A stretch of DNA of 32,000 bases, from positions 330,001 through 362,000 of the forward strand of contig NZ_CP043316.1 of the NCBI RefSeq assembly GCF_008189405.1. Direction: 5' to 3'. The translations under genes and the position numbers were made by a program. Source of the stretch: Candidatus Saccharimonadota bacterium. Its GTDB lineage: Bacteria; Pseudomonadota; Alphaproteobacteria; CAJXXZ01; 1604HC. Shown here one piece after another: positions 8,989 to 30,504 of the stretch (its first letter is position 1; each line of letters begins with the position of its first letter). Below the pieces are notes generated by a model. The model ran no database searches, was not told the DNA's origin, and saw only the letters and a program-made list of their open reading frames with translations.

Positions 8989-9100
8989 TTAAGTTTAGAA
9001 ATACAATTTTCTTACGTATACTTGTTTTAATGATTTTGATAAGTGTTGTGTAAATAAGATATTACTGTATTGTTGTTATATTAGAAGGAGAACGAACCCT

Positions 9101-10765
9101 ATGGACCAAATTAAGAAATCTTTAAAATATCATTCAAATTTTCCTAAAGGGAAATGGGGAATGCACGCCACTAAACCTTTAACTTTGCAAGATATGGCAT
9201 TAGCTTATTCTCCTGGAGTTGCTGATCCTTGCCTAGAAATTGAGCGTGATTTAGAAACTGCTAAAGAATATACAGCAAAACAAAATTTAGTTGCTGTTAT
9301 TAGCAATGGAACAGCGGTATTAGGATTGGGAAATATTGGAGCACTTGCATCAAAACCTGTGATGGAAGGGAAATGCATTCTGATGAATAAGATGTCAGGG
9401 GTTTTTGGTGTTGACATAGAAGTTGATGAGAAAGATTCAGATAAAATCATTGAGATTATTAGAAAAATTTCTCCTACATTTGGTGCAATTAACTTAGAAG
9501 ATATTAAAGCTCCTGAATGCTTTATAATTGAAGAAGCATTACAAGATTTAGATATTCCTGTATTTCATGATGATCAACATGGGACAGCAATTGTTGCTAC
9601 AGCTGGAATTGAAAATGCATTAAAGCTATCAGGAAAGTCATGGGGCTCTGTTAAGGTTGTGGCAAATGGTGCTGGTGCTGCTGGTATTGCATGCTTAGAT
9701 TCTATGGTTAATATGGGTTTAAATCCTAACAATATTATGCTTTTTGATTCAAAAGGATTGATTAATGATACACGTTCTGACCTAAACAAATATAAGCAGA
9801 AATATGCTATAAATAAAAAATCATGCACATTAGAAGAAGCATTAAATGGTGCTGATATATTTCTGGGAATGTCCGCAGCAAAAGCATTAAAACCAGAGTG
9901 GATAGTAAATATGGCAAAAGATCCTGTAATTTTTGGACTAGCAAACCCAGAACCAGAAATAATGCCAGAATTAGCAAAAGAAGTTAGACCAGATTGCATA
10001 ATGGCTACAGGAAGATCTGACTATCCAAACCAGGTCAACAATATTTTATGCTTCCCATATATTTTTAGAGGAGCATTGGACTCTCAAGCAAAAAGCATTA
10101 ATAATGAGATGAAAAAAGCATGTATCAAAGCAATTGCTGAAATTGCAAGAAATGATAAAAGCTTTGGTACTAGTCATATAATTCCTAATTCATTAGATGA
10201 AAGATTAGGCTTGATTGTATCAAACGCTGTCGCTCAAGCAGCAATTGAAAGTGGTGCTGGTAAATCAGTGCCTAATTTATATGGAAGATATATAGAGAAA
10301 ATGCTTAATATAAATTCAGAGCGATATTTTAATATATATAATGGATCTAATCCTATAAATATTGATAACATTCAAACGGATATTCAATCATTTTTAAATG
10401 CATGGGAAACTCCAATCAAATCAGATTCAAATTCACAATATGTTATCAAACCTATGGAAAAATCTTGTAATGGTGAAAAATTGGTTTGGATTTTTGGCCT
10501 AGAATCATCTAATCCTTGGATAGCATATAGCACTAGTGAAAATTCTATAATTAAGGATATTAGATCAATATTAAGCTTGTCTAACATGCCACATATTCCA
10601 GTAGTAGATATAAAACAATGTAGAGATTTAGAAAAAAGAAATGATTTTTGTGGTAGAATTTCATTAAATGAGGGGTTAAAAATGGAATTCAAACCAGGAT
10701 TAAGAAATATAGCCTACCTTACATTGCTTTTAAGTGGTATTGCAAATGTCAAAATTACCTATTGA
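9101..10765 (+). CDS. maeB: NAD(P)-dependent malic enzyme, MaeB-type N-terminal module with a short unrecognisable C-terminal tail
   Basis: 554 aa. Residues 1 to about 410 carry MaeB-type motifs (YSPGVA, VISNGTAVLGLGNIG, FHDDQHGTAIV, GAGAAG, NPEPEI, NQVNNILCFPYIFRGALD). The SD AAGGAG lies at 9085..9090. The last 145 aa or so show no PTA-like motifs. Confidence 0.88.
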   Translation: MDQIKKSLKYHSNFPKGKWGMHATKPLTLQDMALAYSPGVADPCLEIERDLETAKEYTAKQNLVAVISNGTAVLGLGNIGALASKPVMEGKCILMNKMSGVFGVDIEVDEKDSDKIIEIIRKISPTFGAINLEDIKAPECFIIEEALQDLDIPVFHDDQHGTAIVATAGIENALKLSGKSWGSVKVVANGAGAAGIACLDSMVNMGLNPNNIMLFDSKGLINDTRSDLNKYKQKYAINKKSCTLEEALNGADIFLGMSAAKALKPEWIVNMAKDPVIFGLANPEPEIMPELAKEVRPDCIMATGRSDYPNQVNNILCFPYIFRGALDSQAKSINNEMKKACIKAIAEIARNDKSFGTSHIIPNSLDERLGLIVSNAVAQAAIESGAGKSVPNLYGRYIEKMLNINSERYFNIYNGSNPINIDNIQTDIQSFLNAWETPIKSDSNSQYVIKPMEKSCNGEKLVWIFGLESSNPWIAYSTSENSIIKDIRSILSLSNMPHIPVVDIKQCRDLEKRNDFCGRISLNEGLKMEFKPGLRNIAYLTLLLSGIANVKITY

Positions 10766-15732: not shown

Positions 15733-16392
15733 TTATTGCTGCAGATTAGATGTAAATTCACGCATTTTGCTACGTATTTTTTGTGATAATTTTCTTTGGT
15801 TATTGCTATATGGTATATTATGCAACAATACATTATCTTGCATTATAAATTTATAACCTAATATTTCCTCTGATAATAAATGTGATGCATGAATTGTATA
15901 ATCAAAATATCCTCCATTAAATTGAAGTTCACAACCTTCAATCAAGCAAACATTGCCTTCTCTAAATAACCAAAATATATCATTATGAAAAGCCCATGGC
16001 CTATGGCGATTATTTAGCAGCATATACTCACTACGCATTAATATAATTGCATTTTCTGCATCTTTATGTAGATTTTTTGCTTGATCATAAGTAATTAAGG
16101 TTGTATTAGATTCATTAAACTCACCCCTTGGTAGAAAATCTCTTTTTCTAACATTTTTCGGCTCAATAAAATTTGTTAAATTTTTACCATCTAATATTGA
16201 ATTACAATTTATAGCTAAACCTAAATAAATAATTTTTCCATCTTCTTCTTGAAATATTTTTTCATATTTACCTTGGTCAACTAGCTTTTCTGCAATTTTC
16301 ACATTAAAAGTAAAAGCGTGTACATCTGTATTATATATGAACATTGAATGCACTTTGGAAACTATTAAAGCGCATAATATAAATCTTCTCAT
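15733..16392 (-). CDS. hypothetical exported protein
   Basis: 219-aa ORF with a hydrophobic N-terminus (MRRFILCALIVSKVHS). I recognise no motif. The ORF length is the main support for coding. Confidence 0.5.
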   Translation of the reverse strand: MRRFILCALIVSKVHSMFIYNTDVHAFTFNVKIAEKLVDQGKYEKIFQEEDGKIIYLGLAINCNSILDGKNLTNFIEPKNVRKRDFLPRGEFNESNTTLITYDQAKNLHKDAENAIILMRSEYMLLNNRHRPWAFHNDIFWLFREGNVCLIEGCELQFNGGYFDYTIHASHLLSEEILGYKFIMQDNVLLHNIPYSNNQRKLSQKIRSKMREFTSNLQQ

Positions 16393-17242: not shown

Positions 17243-18493
17243 TCATATAATTGAAGAAAAGATTCTATTAGTTTTATTAATATGATTAATTCCAATCACA
17301 AGCGCATCTACACGATCAGGGGATTTACTAAAACCGGGAAAGGATTTCATTTGTTTTTCTAGCTCTGTAAAAGTACCAATATGAAAAACTCTTCTATGAT
17401 CATATAGGCATGCTATCGGTTGTGCTCGCATAATCTTGTTATGTACAGATCTAATGCCTTGAAATCTCACCATTCTATTCTGCATTTTAATCAGCTGTTC
17501 TATCATGTCTCCACCCTGATTAATCTCTGCAATCACATTATTGGTTTTATATTTTTGGCATAATTCTGCACAAACTTTCGGCCACTCTGACATAGACCAT
17601 TTCCCACTTTTATCTTCTAGTACATAAAACTCATCGTTTTTCTTACCTACCACAATAATGCCAGTTTCATCACTATTTTCATTATTTGTAACAGCAGGAT
17701 CTATGGAAATTATAATATTGGATAATTGAGATATATCTGATGTGGACATTTCTTTCCTTAGAATATTATTATCTGACCACATTGTGATTTTATCTAATAA
17801 TTCACCACTAATTTCTTGCTTACCAAAATTTGTTCCCTCATATTCATTTTTAATATAACTAAGATATTCTTTAGATAAATTTAGCTTGTTTTCCATTGTA
17901 TTACCACTAGTATAATGCACATCACTCCTTTTAATGATTTTATGTAATAAAGGTATTGGCTTAGGTGTAGTAGTGACAATAATCTTTGGAATCCCTAATC
18001 GCATTGTCATCATTAATTGATCCCATGCTTCATCTAAATTATTAAATTTTGCCAATTCATCTACCCAAGCTAGATCAAATTGTGGCCCCCTCAAGCTTTC
18101 ATAAGAATCAGCACTATGTATTTGGGCAATAGCACCATTTTTCCACTTTAATATATTTTGTGAGGCAAAGAATTTTGGCTTTTCTTTATTCGAATACACA
18201 CTTAATATTCCGCTTTGACCATCAACCATGATTTTTCTCACTTCTTCTTTGGTTTTTCCTAATAAACAAATGTTTTTATATCCCATCTGAACAAATTGTT
18301 TGATTGATTCTGATCCTGTACGTGTTTTACCAAAACCTCTTCCAGCTAATAGTAACCAAATTCTCCAGTCCCATTGTGGAATTTTCTGATTATCACGTGC
18401 TTGCATTCTCCAATCATACTTTCTTTCTTCTTGGTTAATTAACTTTATCCCTAAACTGTATATCTCTTCTAATAATTTTATATTCGCATGCAT
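17243..18493 (-). CDS. phage/GTA-type terminase large subunit (RcGTA g2-like), orphan
   Basis: ORF 17243..18568. I prefer the internal start MHANIKLL (ATG at complement 18491..18493). It has the Walker A-like LLAGRGFGKTRTG preceded by the W-rich WDWRIW segment, Walker B LAWVDELAKF, and a C-terminal nuclease-like region (ISIDPA..., SPDRVDALV). These are typical of alphaproteobacterial GTA TerL. Confidence 0.82.
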   Translation of the reverse strand: MHANIKLLEEIYSLGIKLINQEERKYDWRMQARDNQKIPQWDWRIWLLLAGRGFGKTRTGSESIKQFVQMGYKNICLLGKTKEEVRKIMVDGQSGILSVYSNKEKPKFFASQNILKWKNGAIAQIHSADSYESLRGPQFDLAWVDELAKFNNLDEAWDQLMMTMRLGIPKIIVTTTPKPIPLLHKIIKRSDVHYTSGNTMENKLNLSKEYLSYIKNEYEGTNFGKQEISGELLDKITMWSDNNILRKEMSTSDISQLSNIIISIDPAVTNNENSDETGIIVVGKKNDEFYVLEDKSGKWSMSEWPKVCAELCQKYKTNNVIAEINQGGDMIEQLIKMQNRMVRFQGIRSVHNKIMRAQPIACLYDHRRVFHIGTFTELEKQMKSFPGFSKSPDRVDALVIGINHINKTNRIFSSII

Positions 18494-18605
18494 AACTCTA
18501 TTGTAGAAAATATGCTTACCATAATTCAAACCTTTTATAAAAAATTGAAACAATCCTAAAACACACAATACTTATATTTGCTTAAACTCATGTTAATATA
18601 TAGTT

Positions 18606-18944
18606 ATGAATAAGATGGTTTTATTAATGCTTTGTATAAAGAGTGTGTTTGCTAGACCAATGCAATCAATAGTTATTGATGAGCCTAACAAGACAACAAA
18701 TGCTATAGAAATTTTCAATTCTTTTAAAATCACTGAAAATCCAGAATATAATGAATATTTAGAATTACTTATTTTCTACCCATATTTTATGATGCAATAT
18801 AGTTTTGATATCAAGAACAGTATGATTTTTGATATAAATCTTACAAGTAATACTATAAATATGTGCATTAAAAATCCATTAGAATTAGCTGAAAAATTTG
18901 AAATTGCAACTCAATCTAGATCTCCTCCTTCACCAGAAAAATAA
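18606..18944 (+). CDS. small hypothetical protein, possibly exported
   Basis: 112-aa ORF divergent from the terminase, with a hydrophobic N-terminus (MNKMVLLMLCIKSVFA). It has no motifs and could be non-coding. Confidence 0.3.
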   Translation: MNKMVLLMLCIKSVFARPMQSIVIDEPNKTTNAIEIFNSFKITENPEYNEYLELLIFYPYFMMQYSFDIKNSMIFDINLTSNTINMCIKNPLELAEKFEIATQSRSPPSPEK

Positions 18945-20207: not shown

Positions 20208-20780
20208 CTAACCATTATATAAAGATTGACTAGACGCATATGCTTTTTGTAATGCGTCTATTCCAGAATATACACTATAAGCCAAACCTTTTATTTTAAT
20301 TAAATTATCTAAACTCACCTCATAATTTACTTCATTAAATGAGTTAGGTGTCTTATTATAGAAAGCATTAAAAGCAGTATATAGTGAGTTTAATAGATTA
20401 TATATATCCATAAGTTTTTTTCTATTTTCTGGAGTAGGCAAATATTTACCAGGCAAATCTTTTGCTGCACTATACCCACGTTGTGCTGTACTATATCCAT
20501 ATTGTGCTGCACTATGTGCTGCATTATATCCTTGAGAAGGCAAATTACGCCCTGCATTCAAAGCTCCTTGCGCCAAATGCTGAGTAGATTCTATACCACT
20601 TTGAAGCATACTACTTGCGCTTGCAGCTAATCTATCCACAACAGTTCTATCTGCATTCTGCTGCTTTCTTGCGTTAGTATTCTGTCCTTTTGCTAACTGA
20701 GCTCTTGATGGACCTGGATTAGACTCTACACTTGCACATGATCCTAAAATACATAATATTGCAATATAATTCTTTTTCAT
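20208..20780 (-). CDS. predicted lipoprotein, paralog A of a three-gene family
   Basis: 190 aa. The signal peptide with lipobox is MKKNYIAILCILGS-C15. The mature part is A/Q/S/G/N-rich with GY(N/S)xA repeats (QGYNAAHSAAQYGYSTAQRGYSAA). The C-terminal VSLDNLIKIKG motif is shared with paralog B. An SD-like GGGAGAAAAATCTA precedes the ATG. Confidence 0.7.
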   Translation of the reverse strand: MKKNYIAILCILGSCASVESNPGPSRAQLAKGQNTNARKQQNADRTVVDRLAASASSMLQSGIESTQHLAQGALNAGRNLPSQGYNAAHSAAQYGYSTAQRGYSAAKDLPGKYLPTPENRKKLMDIYNLLNSLYTAFNAFYNKTPNSFNEVNYEVSLDNLIKIKGLAYSVYSGIDALQKAYASSQSLYNG

Positions 20781-20842
20781 TAGATTTTTCTCCCTATATT
20801 TAAATTATACTTAAGCTATATTAATTTTTCATAGATTTTTAC
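20732..20842 (-). repeat. conserved 5' cassette of lipoprotein paralog A (first 49 nt of the CDS plus 62 nt upstream)
   Basis: It aligns without gaps to 21558..21668, with about 9 mismatches in 111 nt by hand count. The offset is 826 bp. Confidence 0.85.
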
Positions 20843-21045
20843 ATCAATCATATAGTAGATATGTATCATTGTACTTGTTTTTTATTTGATTTTTCACTTA
20901 ATATTATTATCTTCTAATTGTTTTTTCAGAATATTTATTTGTTATTGAGTTATGCAAATTGAACTATATATTGATGTATTTTATAAACTAGAGTATCTCT
21001 TGATACATCATAAAAATCATACTATTTTTAAATGATCATAGCTCA

Positions 21046-21606
21046 TTATGCATTTGTTGCATGATTATTCATTTTATACATAGTTATTAATTCAGTAGCT
21101 GCACCATGCACTTTTTGAGATGAATCTTTAATTTTTTGAACATTGTCTAAACTAACCCCATTATCATAAATATCGCGAGCAGCACTTGTACCAGGACGAA
21201 TAGATTCTACTATCTTACATATCTCTTCAGCTATTCTTAACATTTTGTCAAATCTTTCCTTTGCATTTCGATCATGCAAGTATATACGTGCTTTTGCAAC
21301 TTGCGATGCAGCTGATACATATGCTTGTTCACCTGCTTTGCGTAATGCCTCTTGCCCAGCATTTATTGTATTTTTAGTACTATCTGCAATTTCTTGTGCC
21401 CTTACACTTGCATTATGCATAGAAGAAGTCACAAATGGACCTGTATTATTGATTGCAGTATTTATACGTGGGCCTACATTACCTCTAGCAGTAAATACTT
21501 GTTTACGCGCAGTATTCCATAATGCTTGCGCTCTAGATGGATTAACACATTTCACATTTGCACATGATCCTAAAATACACAATACTGCGATATAATTCTT
21601 TTTCAT
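21046..21606 (-). CDS. predicted lipoprotein, paralog B
   Basis: 186 aa. The signal peptide MKKNYIAVLCILGS-C15 and the upstream region are nearly identical to those of paralog A. The mature part is diverged but keeps PSRAQ, INAGQ and VSLDNVQKIKD. Confidence 0.7.
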   Translation of the reverse strand: MKKNYIAVLCILGSCANVKCVNPSRAQALWNTARKQVFTARGNVGPRINTAINNTGPFVTSSMHNASVRAQEIADSTKNTINAGQEALRKAGEQAYVSAASQVAKARIYLHDRNAKERFDKMLRIAEEICKIVESIRPGTSAARDIYDNGVSLDNVQKIKDSSQKVHGAATELITMYKMNNHATNA

Positions 21607-21668
21607 TAGATTTTTCTCCCTATATTTAAATTATACTTAAATCGTATTAATTTTTCATGGATTTTTAT
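21558..21668 (-). repeat. conserved 5' cassette of lipoprotein paralog B
   Basis: This is the partner of 20732..20842. The 47-nt core AATTCTTTTTCATTAGATTTTTCTCCCTATATTTAAATTATACTTAA is identical in both copies. Confidence 0.85.
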
Positions 21669-21871
21669 ATTGACAATACATAAATATATTGCATTATGAT
21701 TGCAAAGTATACTATATTCTTATTATGCTTTATTTGAATTATTACTATTATTTTGTTTGCTTGTTTCGAATTATTAAAGATAATTGATTGAATATATAAA
21801 ATTAAAAACTATATTATGCAGTTGTTAAAAATATATTGATCATTATTAAATTGATTTTACTCAAAACACTA

Positions 21872-22645
21872 TTAGCGTGAGTATGCTTCATGACCAGCAT
21901 TGTACAATGTTTGTCCAGCTGCTTTTGCATCATTTAACTTACTATGTGCATTATGACCAGCTTCTTGAAGTCTATTGAAGTTTTGTGCATTCAAGTAACC
22001 TGTTCCTTGGTTTTTAATTGTATTAAACTCTTGTTTAATGGCACCCTTATGAGTGTTTGCATAGTTGTATCCATCTTGCAATGTTTTACCTGCATTAATA
22101 ATTTTATTTCTGTTATCTGGGTTAGATACGTATGAAACACCCCTTCTACCTAAATCATACCCTTTATGAGCAACACCACTTACTTTTCCAGCAAATTGAC
22201 TTAATCTACCTTGAGATGAAGAACCGTTGGAACCATAAACTGTGTTACCAGCATTGTACAATGTTTGTCCAGCATGCTTAGTTCTATTGAACTCTTCTTG
22301 TGCTTGTTTACCAGCATTTGATAATCTATTCATATTTTCTGCGTTAAAATAGTTCATACCTTCGCTTTTTGCTTTATGGTATTCATTAATTGCAGCATCT
22401 TTATTATCTTTTACATAGTGATATCCACTTTTAATTTGATTTCCTGCATTTTTGATATTTGCTACGTTTGATGGGTCTTTTATGTAATTAAAACCTCTTT
22501 GTCCAACTTCAATACCTTTTTTACCTAAGTTAATTCCTTTATTAACAGCACTTGATGCAGTCTTTTTTACTTTAGAAAATAGACCACACTCTATCTTTGT
22601 ACATGATGCTAACACACATAATATTGCAAAATAATTTTTGTTCAT
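21872..22645 (-). CDS. predicted lipoprotein, paralog C, with an internal two-fold duplication
   Basis: 257 aa. The signal peptide is MNKNYFAILCVLAS-C15, a textbook L-A-S-C lipobox. It shares NAG....GY(N/H)Y-type motifs with paralogs A and B. The two halves (G44-Y137 and G162-Y255) align. Confidence 0.7.
   Translation of the reverse strand: MNKNYFAILCVLASCTKIECGLFSKVKKTASSAVNKGINLGKKGIEVGQRGFNYIKDPSNVANIKNAGNQIKSGYHYVKDNKDAAINEYHKAKSEGMNYFNAENMNRLSNAGKQAQEEFNRTKHAGQTLYNAGNTVYGSNGSSSQGRLSQFAGKVSGVAHKGYDLGRRGVSYVSNPDNRNKIINAGKTLQDGYNYANTHKGAIKQEFNTIKNQGTGYLNAQNFNRLQEAGHNAHSKLNDAKAAGQTLYNAGHEAYSR
21881..22516 (-). repeat. intragenic duplication, two units of about 282 nt offset by 354 nt (118 codons)
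   Basis: The exact 26-nt CCAGCATTGTACAATGTTTGTCCAGC occurs at 21894 and 22248. At protein level, GIEVGQRGFNYIKDPSNVANIKNAG...AGQTLYNAGNTVY aligns with GYDLGRRGVSYVSNPDNRNKIINAG...AGQTLYNAGHEAY. Confidence 0.85.
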
Positions 22646-22796
22646 TTACTTCTCCTGTACTCAAACTGTACTTGTATTAAATTAAGTTTAAGTAAATTTT
22701 AAATTATAAACAAATGAATCTTGCTATATATAAAGAACTATCATGCTATTATACTTCAACACTACTATATAACACATACTTTAAATGTCATTTTAT

Positions 22797-23554: not shown

Positions 23555-24088
23555 CTACAGTCCTACTGCAATTCCAAGGTATTCATTAATTAATTTTATT
23601 CCATCAACACCAAACCATTGAAACTTAAAATCTTGAGTTTTATATTGAACTTTATTGTTTTTCATCAGCACAACTGTAGGTTTTTGACGTATTCTAAACT
23701 TTTTAGCAAATTTATTATTTTTATCTAAATAAACTTCAAATCCAAAATTAAATTTATACCTTTTTTGCATTAAGTTTAGCAAATATAAAATTTGACTTTC
23801 GTCTGAATCTGAATCAACATTTAAAACCATAGCAATTTTTACATCTTTCCCAAATAATGCATGAGCCTGTGAAAGCATATACATAGCAACTATATTTTGC
23901 TCTGATGGCAAGCTATTTTTTTTAATCTCAGAAAATATAATCATAATTGGCTTTGTTATTTTAGTAGATAAAGAGCCACTCTCATTCTTCAGCACATATT
24001 CTTTATTTACTTGGAAGCATAAAAATCCAATTGATAACAAAATAAATACAGCAATTAAGTTGCGGGTTTTTTTAATTTTACAAAACAT
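23555..24088 (-). CDS. hypothetical membrane-anchored protein
   Basis: 177 aa with one N-terminal TM/signal anchor (LIAVFILLSIGFLCF). The remainder loosely resembles a thioredoxin-like fold (KPTVVLMKNNKV) but has no CxxC motif. The functional call is speculative. Confidence 0.45.
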   Translation of the reverse strand: MFCKIKKTRNLIAVFILLSIGFLCFQVNKEYVLKNESGSLSTKITKPIMIIFSEIKKNSLPSEQNIVAMYMLSQAHALFGKDVKIAMVLNVDSDSDESQILYLLNLMQKRYKFNFGFEVYLDKNNKFAKKFRIRQKPTVVLMKNNKVQYKTQDFKFQWFGVDGIKLINEYLGIAVGL

Positions 24089-30035: not shown

Positions 30036-30165
30036 TACAAGCTCATGCTATTCGCTTGCTTAATCTATATAGTAAATTCCTTATGCCATTGGAGAGATTT
30101 TACAAGCTCATGCTATTCGCTTGCTTAATCTATATAGTAAATTCCTTATGCCATTGGAGAGATTT
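30036..30165. repeat. 65-bp tandem repeat, 2 exact units; the second unit contains the 3'-terminal 17 nt of tRNA-Thr
   Basis: 30036..30100 equals 30101..30165 (TACAAGCTCATGCTATTCGCTTGCTTAATCTATATAGTAAATTCCTTATGCCATTGGAGAGATTT). A third, isolated copy of TATGCCATTGGAGAGAT lies at 29941..29957. Confidence 0.93.
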
Positions 30166-30220
30166 GAACTCTCGGCCTCTCCCTTACCAAGGGAACGCTC
30201 TACCCCTGAGCTACAACGGC
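30149..30220 (-). tRNA. tRNA-Thr, anticodon GGU
   Basis: Hand-folded on the minus strand: GCCGTTG-TA-GCTC-AGGGGTA-GAGC-G-TTCCC-TTGGTAA-GGGAG-AGGCC-GAGAG-TTCAAAT-CTCTC-CAATGGC-A. It is 72 nt and CCA is not encoded. It is a GC-rich island. Confidence 0.9.
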
Positions 30221-30504
30221 ATAAATAAATTGATCCCATAAAAATACAATAAAAACAAGATACATATATATAAAACAACACATAATTAACATGCTTTTTA
30301 TGTTTTGAGCTATACATTACTCCAATTTATCAACATTTATAAAATAACATAACAATACTTAATAAAGATATGGCATTTCTATTTATTTGCCAAATTAAGA
30401 CTTTTTTTCATCTAAATTTACATAAAATTATATATAAATTTTAGTTTTTTTTTACTTTTTTGCCTAAAAATGTTTTTATTAACTTATGGATAGGAGAAAG
30501 TTCT

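Follow-up and report, generated by a model that had tools for sequence, protein, structure and literature searches.

The 32,000 nucleotides (nt) of contig NZ_CP043316.1 analysed here (positions 330,001 to 362,000 of the forward strand; this whole stretch is meant by "the window" in the following) carry, between ftsW and a gene for an rluB-like pseudouridine synthase, a tandem array of three small genes, termed A, B and C. The explanation that accounts best for our findings, and that we hold with fair confidence, is that these genes form a lineage-specific array of exported proteins in which C is the ancestral gene and in which A and B share a young gene conversion tract at their 5' ends. Hypothetical proteins recorded for Candidatus Cytomitobacter primus (C. 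primus) match A and C with 100% identity; each of the two is found on two contigs of the protein collection, the longest of them comprising 622,378 base pairs. C. primus is a member of the Holosporaceae with a GC content of about 30%. It lives as an endosymbiont in the marine diplonemid Diplonema japonicum and is frequently found against the host mitochondrion, so the obligate intracellular bacterium suggested as the source in a preliminary description, made from the sequence only, has turned out to be correct. The published analysis of the genome lists 169 hypothetical proteins and 60 proteins with signal peptides (George et al. 2019/2020); it contains no description of the A/B/C family, the slot between ftsW and rluB, its upstream element or the cassette shared by A and B.

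In the sequence of events that we propose, the ftsW-rluB slot would be long-lived and rapidly turning over in the Cytomitobacter/Nesciobacter clade of diplonemid endosymbionts. C would have kept a clade-wide upstream element and the MNKN-F type N-terminus and would have doubled internally, resulting in two modules of about 107 amino acids (aa), and A and B would be copies particular to C. primus, the C-terminal half of A resembling one such module and both genes carrying a diverged version of the promoter. A tract of 117 nt may then have been homogenised recently between A and B through gene conversion or unequal recombination; it contains the candidate boxes for -35 and -10, a short 5' untranslated region (UTR), the Shine-Dalgarno (SD) sequence GGGAG and the part coding for the signal peptide as far as the cleavage site. 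Expression and export of two quite dissimilar mature proteins would thereby run via one common module.

The genes and their immediate surroundings are as follows:

20208..20780, minus strand: gene A, 190 aa; signal peptide MKKNYIAILCILGSC, followed by a basic (isoelectric point, pI, 9.4), hydrophilic mature part
21046..21606, minus strand: gene B, 186 aa; signal peptide MKKNYIAVLCILGSC
21872..22645, minus strand: gene C, 257 aa; signal peptide MNKNYFAILCVLASC with a canonical LASC lipobox
20736..20780 (A), 21562-21606 (B) and 22601-22645 (C), minus strand: codons 1-15, up to the lipobox Cys15
20463..20515, minus strand: in-frame 21-nt tandem repeat in A, 2.5 copies, encoding AQ(Y/R)GYS(T/A)A
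20781..21045, no strand: B-A intergenic spacer, 265 nt, 20% GC; only the A-proximal 64 nt belong to the block shared by A and B
21607..21871, no strand: C-B intergenic spacer, 265 nt, 18% GC; no more than random identity with the B-A spacer except in the block

A, B and C are real genes, as judged by the GC content of their codon positions, the length of their open reading frames (ORFs) and the protein records of A and C. The GC content at third codon positions is 0.16-0.19, like that of ftsW, gyrA and murA, and 0.38-0.46 at the first and second positions. All three ORFs exceed the longest ORF obtained in 300 shuffles of the region (maximum 173 codons). The preliminary description had reported three ORFs of 190, 186 and 257 aa on the same strand with a common N-terminus and a Cys at residue 15, and the sequence bears this out: all lie on the minus strand and start with M(K/N)KNY(I/F)A(I/V)LC(I/V)L(G/A)SC. 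When codons 1-10 of this N-terminus are written as a degenerate DNA pattern, the three gene starts are its only matches in the 32 kb, with 0 expected.

The 5' ends of A and B are far more alike than the remainder of the two genes. For the 111-nt blocks originally noticed (20732-20842 versus 21558-21668), about 9 mismatches had been counted by hand; on alignment the identity does not vanish and the count is exactly 9. A repeat finder extends the block to 117 nt with 10 mismatches:

20728..20844, minus strand: 117-nt cassette, A copy, about -64 to +53
21554..21670, minus strand: 117-nt cassette, B copy, 91% identical to the A copy, 10/10 differences being transitions
20804..20832, minus strand: candidate sigma-70-type promoter of A, ATGAAA-17 nt-TATAAT, 10/12 consensus match
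21630..21658, minus strand: candidate promoter of B, ATGAAA-17 nt-TATAAT, with hexamers identical to those of A
20790..20794 (A) and 21616-21620 (B), minus strand: SD sequence GGGAG, -14 to -10

Positions -30 to -1 are identical in A and B without exception (30/30), and the exact 37-mer TTAAGTATAATTTAAATATAGGGAGAAAAATCTAATG has two sites in the window, both in these blocks. Beyond the cassette the similarity ends abruptly. Identity is 37% over the 201 spacer nt outside the block (z=0.6 versus shuffles), and in the coding sequence past +60 there are 1-4 matches per 10 nt, i.e. 10-40% identity, in agreement with the earlier remark that the mature coding sequence is hard to align right beside the conserved cassette. 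Both spacers are exactly 265 nt long although they are at random level outside the 64-nt block (best local alignment z=2.4), and this equal length could be due to chance or be a relic of a duplication unit.

Four of the 10 block differences are adjacent transitions (20815-20818 versus 21641-21644; GCTA versus ATCG on the plus strand), located between the candidate -35 and -10 boxes, and this odd clustered four-base change could have arisen as one multi-nucleotide event. The idea that the block is a dispersed repeat or mobile element was considered and rejected, as there are only two copies in the window. The same holds for a regulatory RNA: an Rfam search with the block gave no match at E<=1 and the folding z-scores range from -1.0 to +1.0.

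The position of the array was compared with syntenic loci of five genomes, which were fetched via their FtsW orthologues: C. indipagum (L001), two Cytomitobacter genomes of about 620 kb each (L002 and L003), Nesciobacter abundans (L004) and a 558-kb metagenome-assembled genome (MAG; L005). C. indipagum, L002, L003 and the MAG have the same gene order, i.e. ftsW, slot, rluB-like gene, 175-aa gene, murA, RNase J. In N. abundans the locus is rearranged, with a slot-type gene retained beside ftsW and the rluB-like gene located elsewhere. The slots encode the following signal-peptide proteins, which differ from slot to slot:

C. indipagum (L001): 362 aa, N-terminus MNKKNFAIFCALMSC, with an L-x-S-C lipobox
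L002, 11210-13012, minus strand: 600 aa, N-terminus MNKNIFLIFICTVLMNKTES
L002, 13142-13621, minus strand: second slot protein, 159 aa, N-terminus MNKNIFYIFICVALMNSTES, acidic
L003, 13459-14652, minus strand: 397 aa, N-terminus MNKNIFLLISCLFLSKSDA
N. abundans (L004): 205 aa, N-terminus MNMKKFVSFAILGLCCFNAEA
MAG (L005), 9041-9553, plus strand: 170 aa, N-terminus MNKSLILFSIFVSAGLTA

These proteins have the MNKN-F type N-terminus in common, and the other signal-peptide ORFs of the loci have unrelated N-termini. Apart from the acidic 159-aa protein of L002 they are hydrophilic and have a basic pI of 9.6-9.8. A- and B-type genes are missing from the slots of all five genomes, suggesting that A and B were added in C. 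primus only. The mature parts reach z=4-7 when aligned to A, B, C or one another, and most pairs with three unrelated control proteins stay at about z<=1, the exception being Cp_C-Ci_224 at 4.3. FtsW itself is 57-74% identical across the same genomes. The bodies of the slot proteins evolve extremely fast while the locus persists.

The slot proteins show some peculiarities of their own. In the 600-aa/159-aa pair of L002 the sequences coding for the signal peptides are 79% identical at the nt level (MNKNIF..IFIC..LMN.TES), 8/10 differences being transitions, the mature parts are unrelated (basic versus acidic) and the upstream regions are without similarity, so that the pair represents an independent case of signal-peptide sharing. 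The 600-aa protein contains long coiled-coil repeats of the RLARERAEQ type, and the L003 protein consists of 21% Ser. An aromatic C-terminal motif is found in three slot proteins (L002 ...GIKKFW, L003 ...SWFGW, L005 ...KKLKFW) and is absent from those of C. primus, C. indipagum and N. abundans.

Which of the three genes corresponds to the slot genes of the relatives is indicated by the upstream regions. Over the 64 nt upstream, C shares 74% identity with the slot gene of C. indipagum, 68% with that of L002 and 67% with that of L003. For A-C and B-C the value is 60%, i.e. at random level (shuffles 55+-3%), and only the part coding for the signal peptide is similar between C and A/B (79-85%). 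An alignment of eight upstream regions revealed a 16-nt element:

22681..22696, minus strand: TTTACTTAAACTTAAT, the conserved element as it occurs at -51 of gene C, which may be a -35 region or an operator

In the general form TTTAC[AT]N5TTAAT the element is located at -48 to -57 of the C-type slot gene in 6/6 genomes. In 270 kb of compared DNA the pattern, which was defined post hoc on the same six sequences, has 13 matches on both strands, 6/13 being the slot sites. In A and B the element has diverged to TC(T/C)ATGAAAAATTAAT. As C has the element, the upstream identity to the slot genes of the relatives and the MNKN-F N-terminus common to them, it is the ancestral slot gene, and its promoter region is under long-term selection at the level of the motif. 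C had been described before as a more distant paralogue, which falls short of its role as the founding member; C is, in addition, internally duplicated.

That the three genes form a tandem array of paralogues, as proposed initially, is confirmed by clearly homologous signal peptides and by mature parts that align above composition-preserving shuffles (global alignment, A-B z=5.3, A-C z=8.3, B-C z=3.4), the mature part of B being the most diverged of the three. Of the short motifs that had been said to survive in the mature parts, PSRAQ just past the signal peptide and VSLDN(L/V)xKIK toward the C-terminus (VSLDNVQKIK in B) are indeed present at collinear positions in A and B. Within gene C, a module of about 107 aa is repeated in tandem, with about 37% identity between the two copies (z=26.7):

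22235..22555, minus strand: internal repeat 1 of C, about aa 31-137
21881..22201, minus strand: internal repeat 2 of C, about aa 149-255

In the alignment, A corresponds with its C-terminal half to one C module (YLPTPENRKKL/YVSNPDNRNKI and SQSLYNG/GQTLYNAG, for example). The mature proteins A, B and C are hydrophilic, with a pI of 9.4-9.8 and an abundance of A, N, S, G, K and Y, and AlphaFold2 models of A and C consist of helices only (predicted local distance difference test score, pLDDT, 60 for A and 55 for C).

Export of A, B and C via the Sec pathway is well supported by their sequences, because both the n- and the h-region of a signal peptide are present (MKK or MNK followed by YIAILCILGS; maximum 9-residue Kyte-Doolittle mean 2.66-2.71) and because the genome possesses secABDEFY and ffh (George et al. 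2019/2020). Whether the exported proteins also become lipidated is a more balanced question. The proteins had been predicted to be lipoproteins, and this prediction holds for the broad rule of the PROSITE PS51257 type, which is passed by A, B, C and the C. indipagum orthologue with the Cys at position 15, the minimum of the allowed range (15 to 35). It does not hold for A and B under the strict lipobox [LVI][ASTVI][GAS]C, which only C (LASC) fits, A and B (LGSC) having a G at -2. On these grounds lipidation of A, B and C is plausible, with a chance that we put at slightly better than even, and in C. primus and C. indipagum the L-x-S-C lipobox would probably lead to lipid anchoring after processing by putative Lgt and LspA.

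It is quite possible, if somewhat doubtful, that the proteins are no lipoproteins at all and are cleaved by signal peptidase I and released to the periplasm or beyond, Cys15 being incidental. A lipobox is missing from the slot genes of four of the five related genomes, i.e. from L002, L003, N. abundans and the MAG (VLMNKTES, FLSKSDA, FNAEA and GLTA), A and B deviate from the strict pattern at -2 and carry an alternative SCA/S site that fits the -3/-1 rule for signal peptidase I, and Tol-Pal is nearly absent. There are no lgt, lspA, Lnt or Lol genes within the 32-kb window, and the published descriptions of these endosymbiont genomes mention neither lgt and lspA nor Lol, a silence that is no evidence of absence. 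Points against an incidental Cys are the L-x-S-C motif, which has its Cys at exactly residue 15 in all three C. primus copies and the C. indipagum orthologue, and the textbook LASC of C. The proteins would most likely have a structural or host-facing function at the cell envelope that tolerates almost any basic, hydrophilic and helical sequence; contact with the host cytosol or with mitochondria is speculation.

The age of the A/B cassette can be judged from the kind of substitutions it has accumulated. All 10 differences between the two copies are transitions, as compared to 114 transitions and 159 transversions (42% transitions) in the mature codons (Fisher p=2e-4) and 38 transitions among 127 differences in the remaining spacer. 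Divergence amounts to 8.5% in the block, whereas the aligned mature codons of A and B are only 45% identical at the nt level (55% different). This divergence is saturated, since a codon identity of 59% at conserved residues corresponds to the floor set by codon bias, and dN/dS is therefore meaningless here; drift on low-complexity proteins explains the divergence of the mature parts equally well as diversifying selection. The informative sites that group A with B, A with C and B with C number 28, 6 and 4 in the 5' module and 96, 117 and 70 in the mature part (p=6.5e-5). Moreover, synonymous codons differ at 2/14 identical signal-peptide residues versus 8/13 of the next identical residues (p=0.018, a post hoc comparison). 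Because the block, flanked by saturated sequence, differs by transitions only, the sequences favour a recent gene conversion or unequal recombination of the promoter/SD/signal-peptide tract over constraint alone. Gene conversion was one of the two mechanisms put forward in the preliminary description.

The other one, constraint, would imply that the A/B duplication is old and that the block has been held by purifying selection on the promoter or operator, translation initiation and the signal peptide without any recent recombination. This is unlikely in our judgement, even if the idea has its merits: the 16-nt element and the MNKN-F N-terminus persist over six genomes with unalignable mature parts, the limits of the block match functional limits, reaching from just upstream of the candidate -35 box to the signal-peptide cleavage site, 4/5 upstream mismatches are located in the -35/-10 spacer, where the sequence matters least, and codon bias alone yields the 59% codon identity at conserved residues. 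Selection across species, however, retains only 67-74% of the 64 nt (A-C 60%), i.e. most positions are free, and yet A and B are 91% identical. The free sites of an old block should, in addition, show the substitution spectrum of the flanks (30-42% transitions) instead of 10/10 transitions, and no RNA structure or Rfam family accounts for conservation base by base.

A recent duplication of the whole gene, followed by extremely fast divergence of the mature part of B (by positive selection or decay) with the 5' module unchanged, would fit the absence of A- and B-type genes from all sister slots, which makes the duplication lineage-specific, the long branch of B in the mature region (sites grouping B with C are the fewest, those grouping A with C the most) and orthologous mature parts that are beyond recognition between species with FtsW still 74% identical, but we regard it as very unlikely, as a single age for the 8.5% diverged block, the 55% diverged mature codons and the random-level remaining spacer needs non-synonymous and intergenic rates many times neutral over a 170-aa body and a 200-nt spacer, and as the third positions of the mature part are already transversion-rich (30 transitions, 56 transversions).

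Recent conversion within a lineage-specific array of exported proteins, with C as the ancestral gene, remains our preferred explanation, and several points weigh against it in addition to the Cys15 that is missing from the slot genes of 4/5 related genomes and the alternative signal-peptidase-I site of A and B. The synonymous identity of the coding part of the block does not differ significantly from that of the whole mature part (12/14 versus 24/41, p=0.10). The comparison relies on one strain and two copies, so that a recently transferred 5' module or very strong constraint is formally inseparable from conversion. The promoter was called by its match to the consensus, and in this AT-rich DNA a scan yields no more matches than in shuffles. 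Homology of the mature parts across species is marginal, the hidden Markov model (HMM) of the module giving E=0.049 for C. indipagum and 0.11 for B, which are top-ranked in a 543-ORF database. Finally, the structure models of C and A are of low confidence (pLDDT 55 and 60).

The preliminary description had assigned the proteins to no known family and supposed that they are undescribed, and our searches agree with this. Neither A, B and C nor the slot proteins of the sister genomes have a match in Pfam or NCBIfam, where only sub-threshold noise was obtained (REC114, Maf1, YebG, LMP). A word-indexed search of 5.8 billion proteins returned the query proteins themselves only. The copy number of the family is based on a protein profile search of 1.84 billion representatives, in which a HMMER profile of A, B and C found these three and one weak match, P0124 (E=5e-5). 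A metagenome scan gave 264 pattern matches, 0 of which were confirmed. Foldseek searches with the AlphaFold2 models of A and C, which had been suggested as a check, revealed no meaningful similarity and no characterised family: no match to the Protein Data Bank (PDB) was below E=0.06 and the template modelling (TM) scores were <=0.45, the matches being generic helical bundles that, given models of low confidence, defy interpretation. The best PDB sequence matches, to the C-terminal helices of T4 lysozyme (E=0.16-0.9), were rejected as chance, since they cover no catalytic residues and owe their number to the many mutant entries. The recognisable family thus has three members, all within this array.

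P0124 (L006 6001-6606, plus strand) is a 201-aa lipoprotein (LLVSC) with repeated KxKxLYxxxKxxVSxxYxxAKEKxQEVY helices (K/E/Y), which belongs to no Pfam family and adjoins aconitase. It was not accepted as a member of the family but judged to be an analogue or a compositional match, its contig deriving from an unrelated, apparently free-living metagenomic bacterium (thrS-infC-rplT-pheS and aconitase context). There may be a broader, so far unrecognised class of small lipoproteins with helical repeats, to which P0124 would belong.

The organisation of A and B resembles that of variable lipoproteins in other bacteria. The Erp proteins of Borrelia burgdorferi (OspE/F-related, with an "upstream homology box", UHB) are likewise paralogues with a conserved promoter/operator, leader and first mature residues and a diverse, recombining remainder. 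A and B, and only these two, have the same Erp/UHB architecture, with 91% identity in the 117-nt block versus 45% in the aligned bodies, and the logic of co-expression and co-export would be the same. In contrast, A, B and C have no sequence similarity to Erp (no Pfam or NCBIfam match, no homologues outside C. primus). The erp genes occupy allelic sites on multiple cp32 prophage plasmids, whereas the genes studied here form a chromosomal tandem array of three in a housekeeping context of a 622-kb genome. Regulators (BpaB, BpuR and EbfC) and surface exposure have been demonstrated for Erp, whereas surface exposure of A, B and C is conjectural, and the host of C. primus is a protist without adaptive immunity.

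Variable surface lipoproteins of Mycoplasma, e.g. Vsp of M. bovis and Vpma of M. agalactiae, are encoded in multigene clusters and combine a conserved 5' UTR, signal peptide and cleavage motif with divergent, repeat-containing mature parts and recombine in short shared tracts (PMC5634654). A and B have this type of conserved 5' UTR and signal peptide, whereas C shares only the part coding for the signal peptide. Expression of Vsp and Vpma is governed by Xer-type site-specific inversion around a single promoter, but A, B and C all have the same orientation, and A and B are each preceded by a separate copy of the candidate promoter. The Vlp proteins of M. hyorhinis are another variable lipoprotein family of Mycoplasma, which is switched by a poly-A tract in the promoter. 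No recombinase gene is found in the 32-kb window, the longest homopolymer of the block is A5 and there is no simple sequence repeat in the promoter, i.e. no switching device as in Mycoplasma. Sequence similarity of A, B and C to Vsp, Vpma or Vlp is absent as well.

The OMP-1/P28/Msp2 proteins (Surface_Ag_2) of the Anaplasmataceae are also tandem, fast-evolving envelope proteins of obligate intracellular alphaproteobacteria, but they are beta-barrel and porin-like rather than lipoproteins and occur in a different bacterial order and host type. Membership of A, B and C in this family was rejected, as there is no match to Pfam Surface_Ag_2 even at E<=1 and the low-confidence AlphaFold2 models of A and C are all helical. 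The comparison with OMP-1/Msp2 drawn in the preliminary description is thus beside the point, C. primus not being a pathogen of the Ehrlichia/Anaplasma type. A, B and C are three of the lineage-specific secreted ORFans found in reduced endosymbiont genomes (George et al. 2019/2020).

Going beyond these comparisons, one might speculate that the slot is a dedicated "renewable face" locus, in which a clade-conserved element and an export signal drive an envelope or surface protein with a rebuildable body, in which the cassette is actively copied in C. primus so that several bodies are displayed together, and in which the basic helical proteins mediate contact with the mitochondrion, a combination that we consider highly improbable as a whole. 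Duplication, internal repeats and low-complexity expansion would be the means by which the body is rebuilt. If our preferred reading of the array holds, it would provide a testable handle on how a protist endosymbiont with a 622-kb genome keeps and renews exported host-facing proteins, the parts of this handle being a syntenic slot from Nesciobacter to Cytomitobacter, a 16-nt element that outlives its protein sequence and a young conversion tract. The latter would show that homologous recombination is still shaping the C. primus genome, and three of the 169 hypothetical proteins would become candidates for the unexplained association of symbiont and mitochondrion. No new principle would be involved, the same cassette logic being well described in Borrelia and Mycoplasma.

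The neighbours of the array in the window are housekeeping genes, i.e. gyrA, ssb, a terminase of the gene transfer agent (GTA) type, ftsW, the rluB-like pseudouridine synthase, murA, RNase J, plsX and fabH. Further features of the window are:

17243-18568, minus strand: large subunit of a phage/GTA-type terminase (Terminase_6N/6C), between ssb and ftsW
8368-8725, minus strand: two-piece (permuted) alphaproteobacterial tmRNA with the tag peptide ANNNAFAPANGNSLQAVAVGA
8906-8988, plus strand: tRNA-Leu(GAG)
30148-30221, minus strand: tRNA-Thr(GGT)

The GTA-type terminase adjoins ftsW in 6/6 genomes, the C. indipagum copy (L001 11218-12456, plus strand) being located on the other side of ftsW, within the variable slot. 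This is in line with gene-transfer-agent genes having been reported from protist endosymbionts (PMC9254644).

Several other proteins encoded in the window belong to no recognised family. A hypothetical protein of 746 aa (4678-6918, plus strand) has the signal peptide MKSSLLASVLFFSFVINA and a long E/K/Q/N-rich, coiled-coil-like body without a Pfam match, and L002 and L003 also contain large unannotated ORFs close to gyrA. Two small signal-peptide ORFs, one of 219 aa (15733-16392, minus strand; MRRFILCALIVSKVHS) and one of 112 aa (18606-18944, plus strand; MNKMVLLMLCIKSVFA), have no family match and are unrelated to A, B and C. A membrane-anchored protein of 177 aa (23555-24088, minus strand) without a Pfam family shows a faint thioredoxin-like match (E=0.007). 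The Cytomitobacter genomes and the MAG have conserved it at the same place, with the rluB-like gene on one side and murA on the other (170-181 aa; start MFCK, MLCK or MFCR), and in N. abundans a similar ORF of 187 aa is found next to the relocated rluB-like gene.

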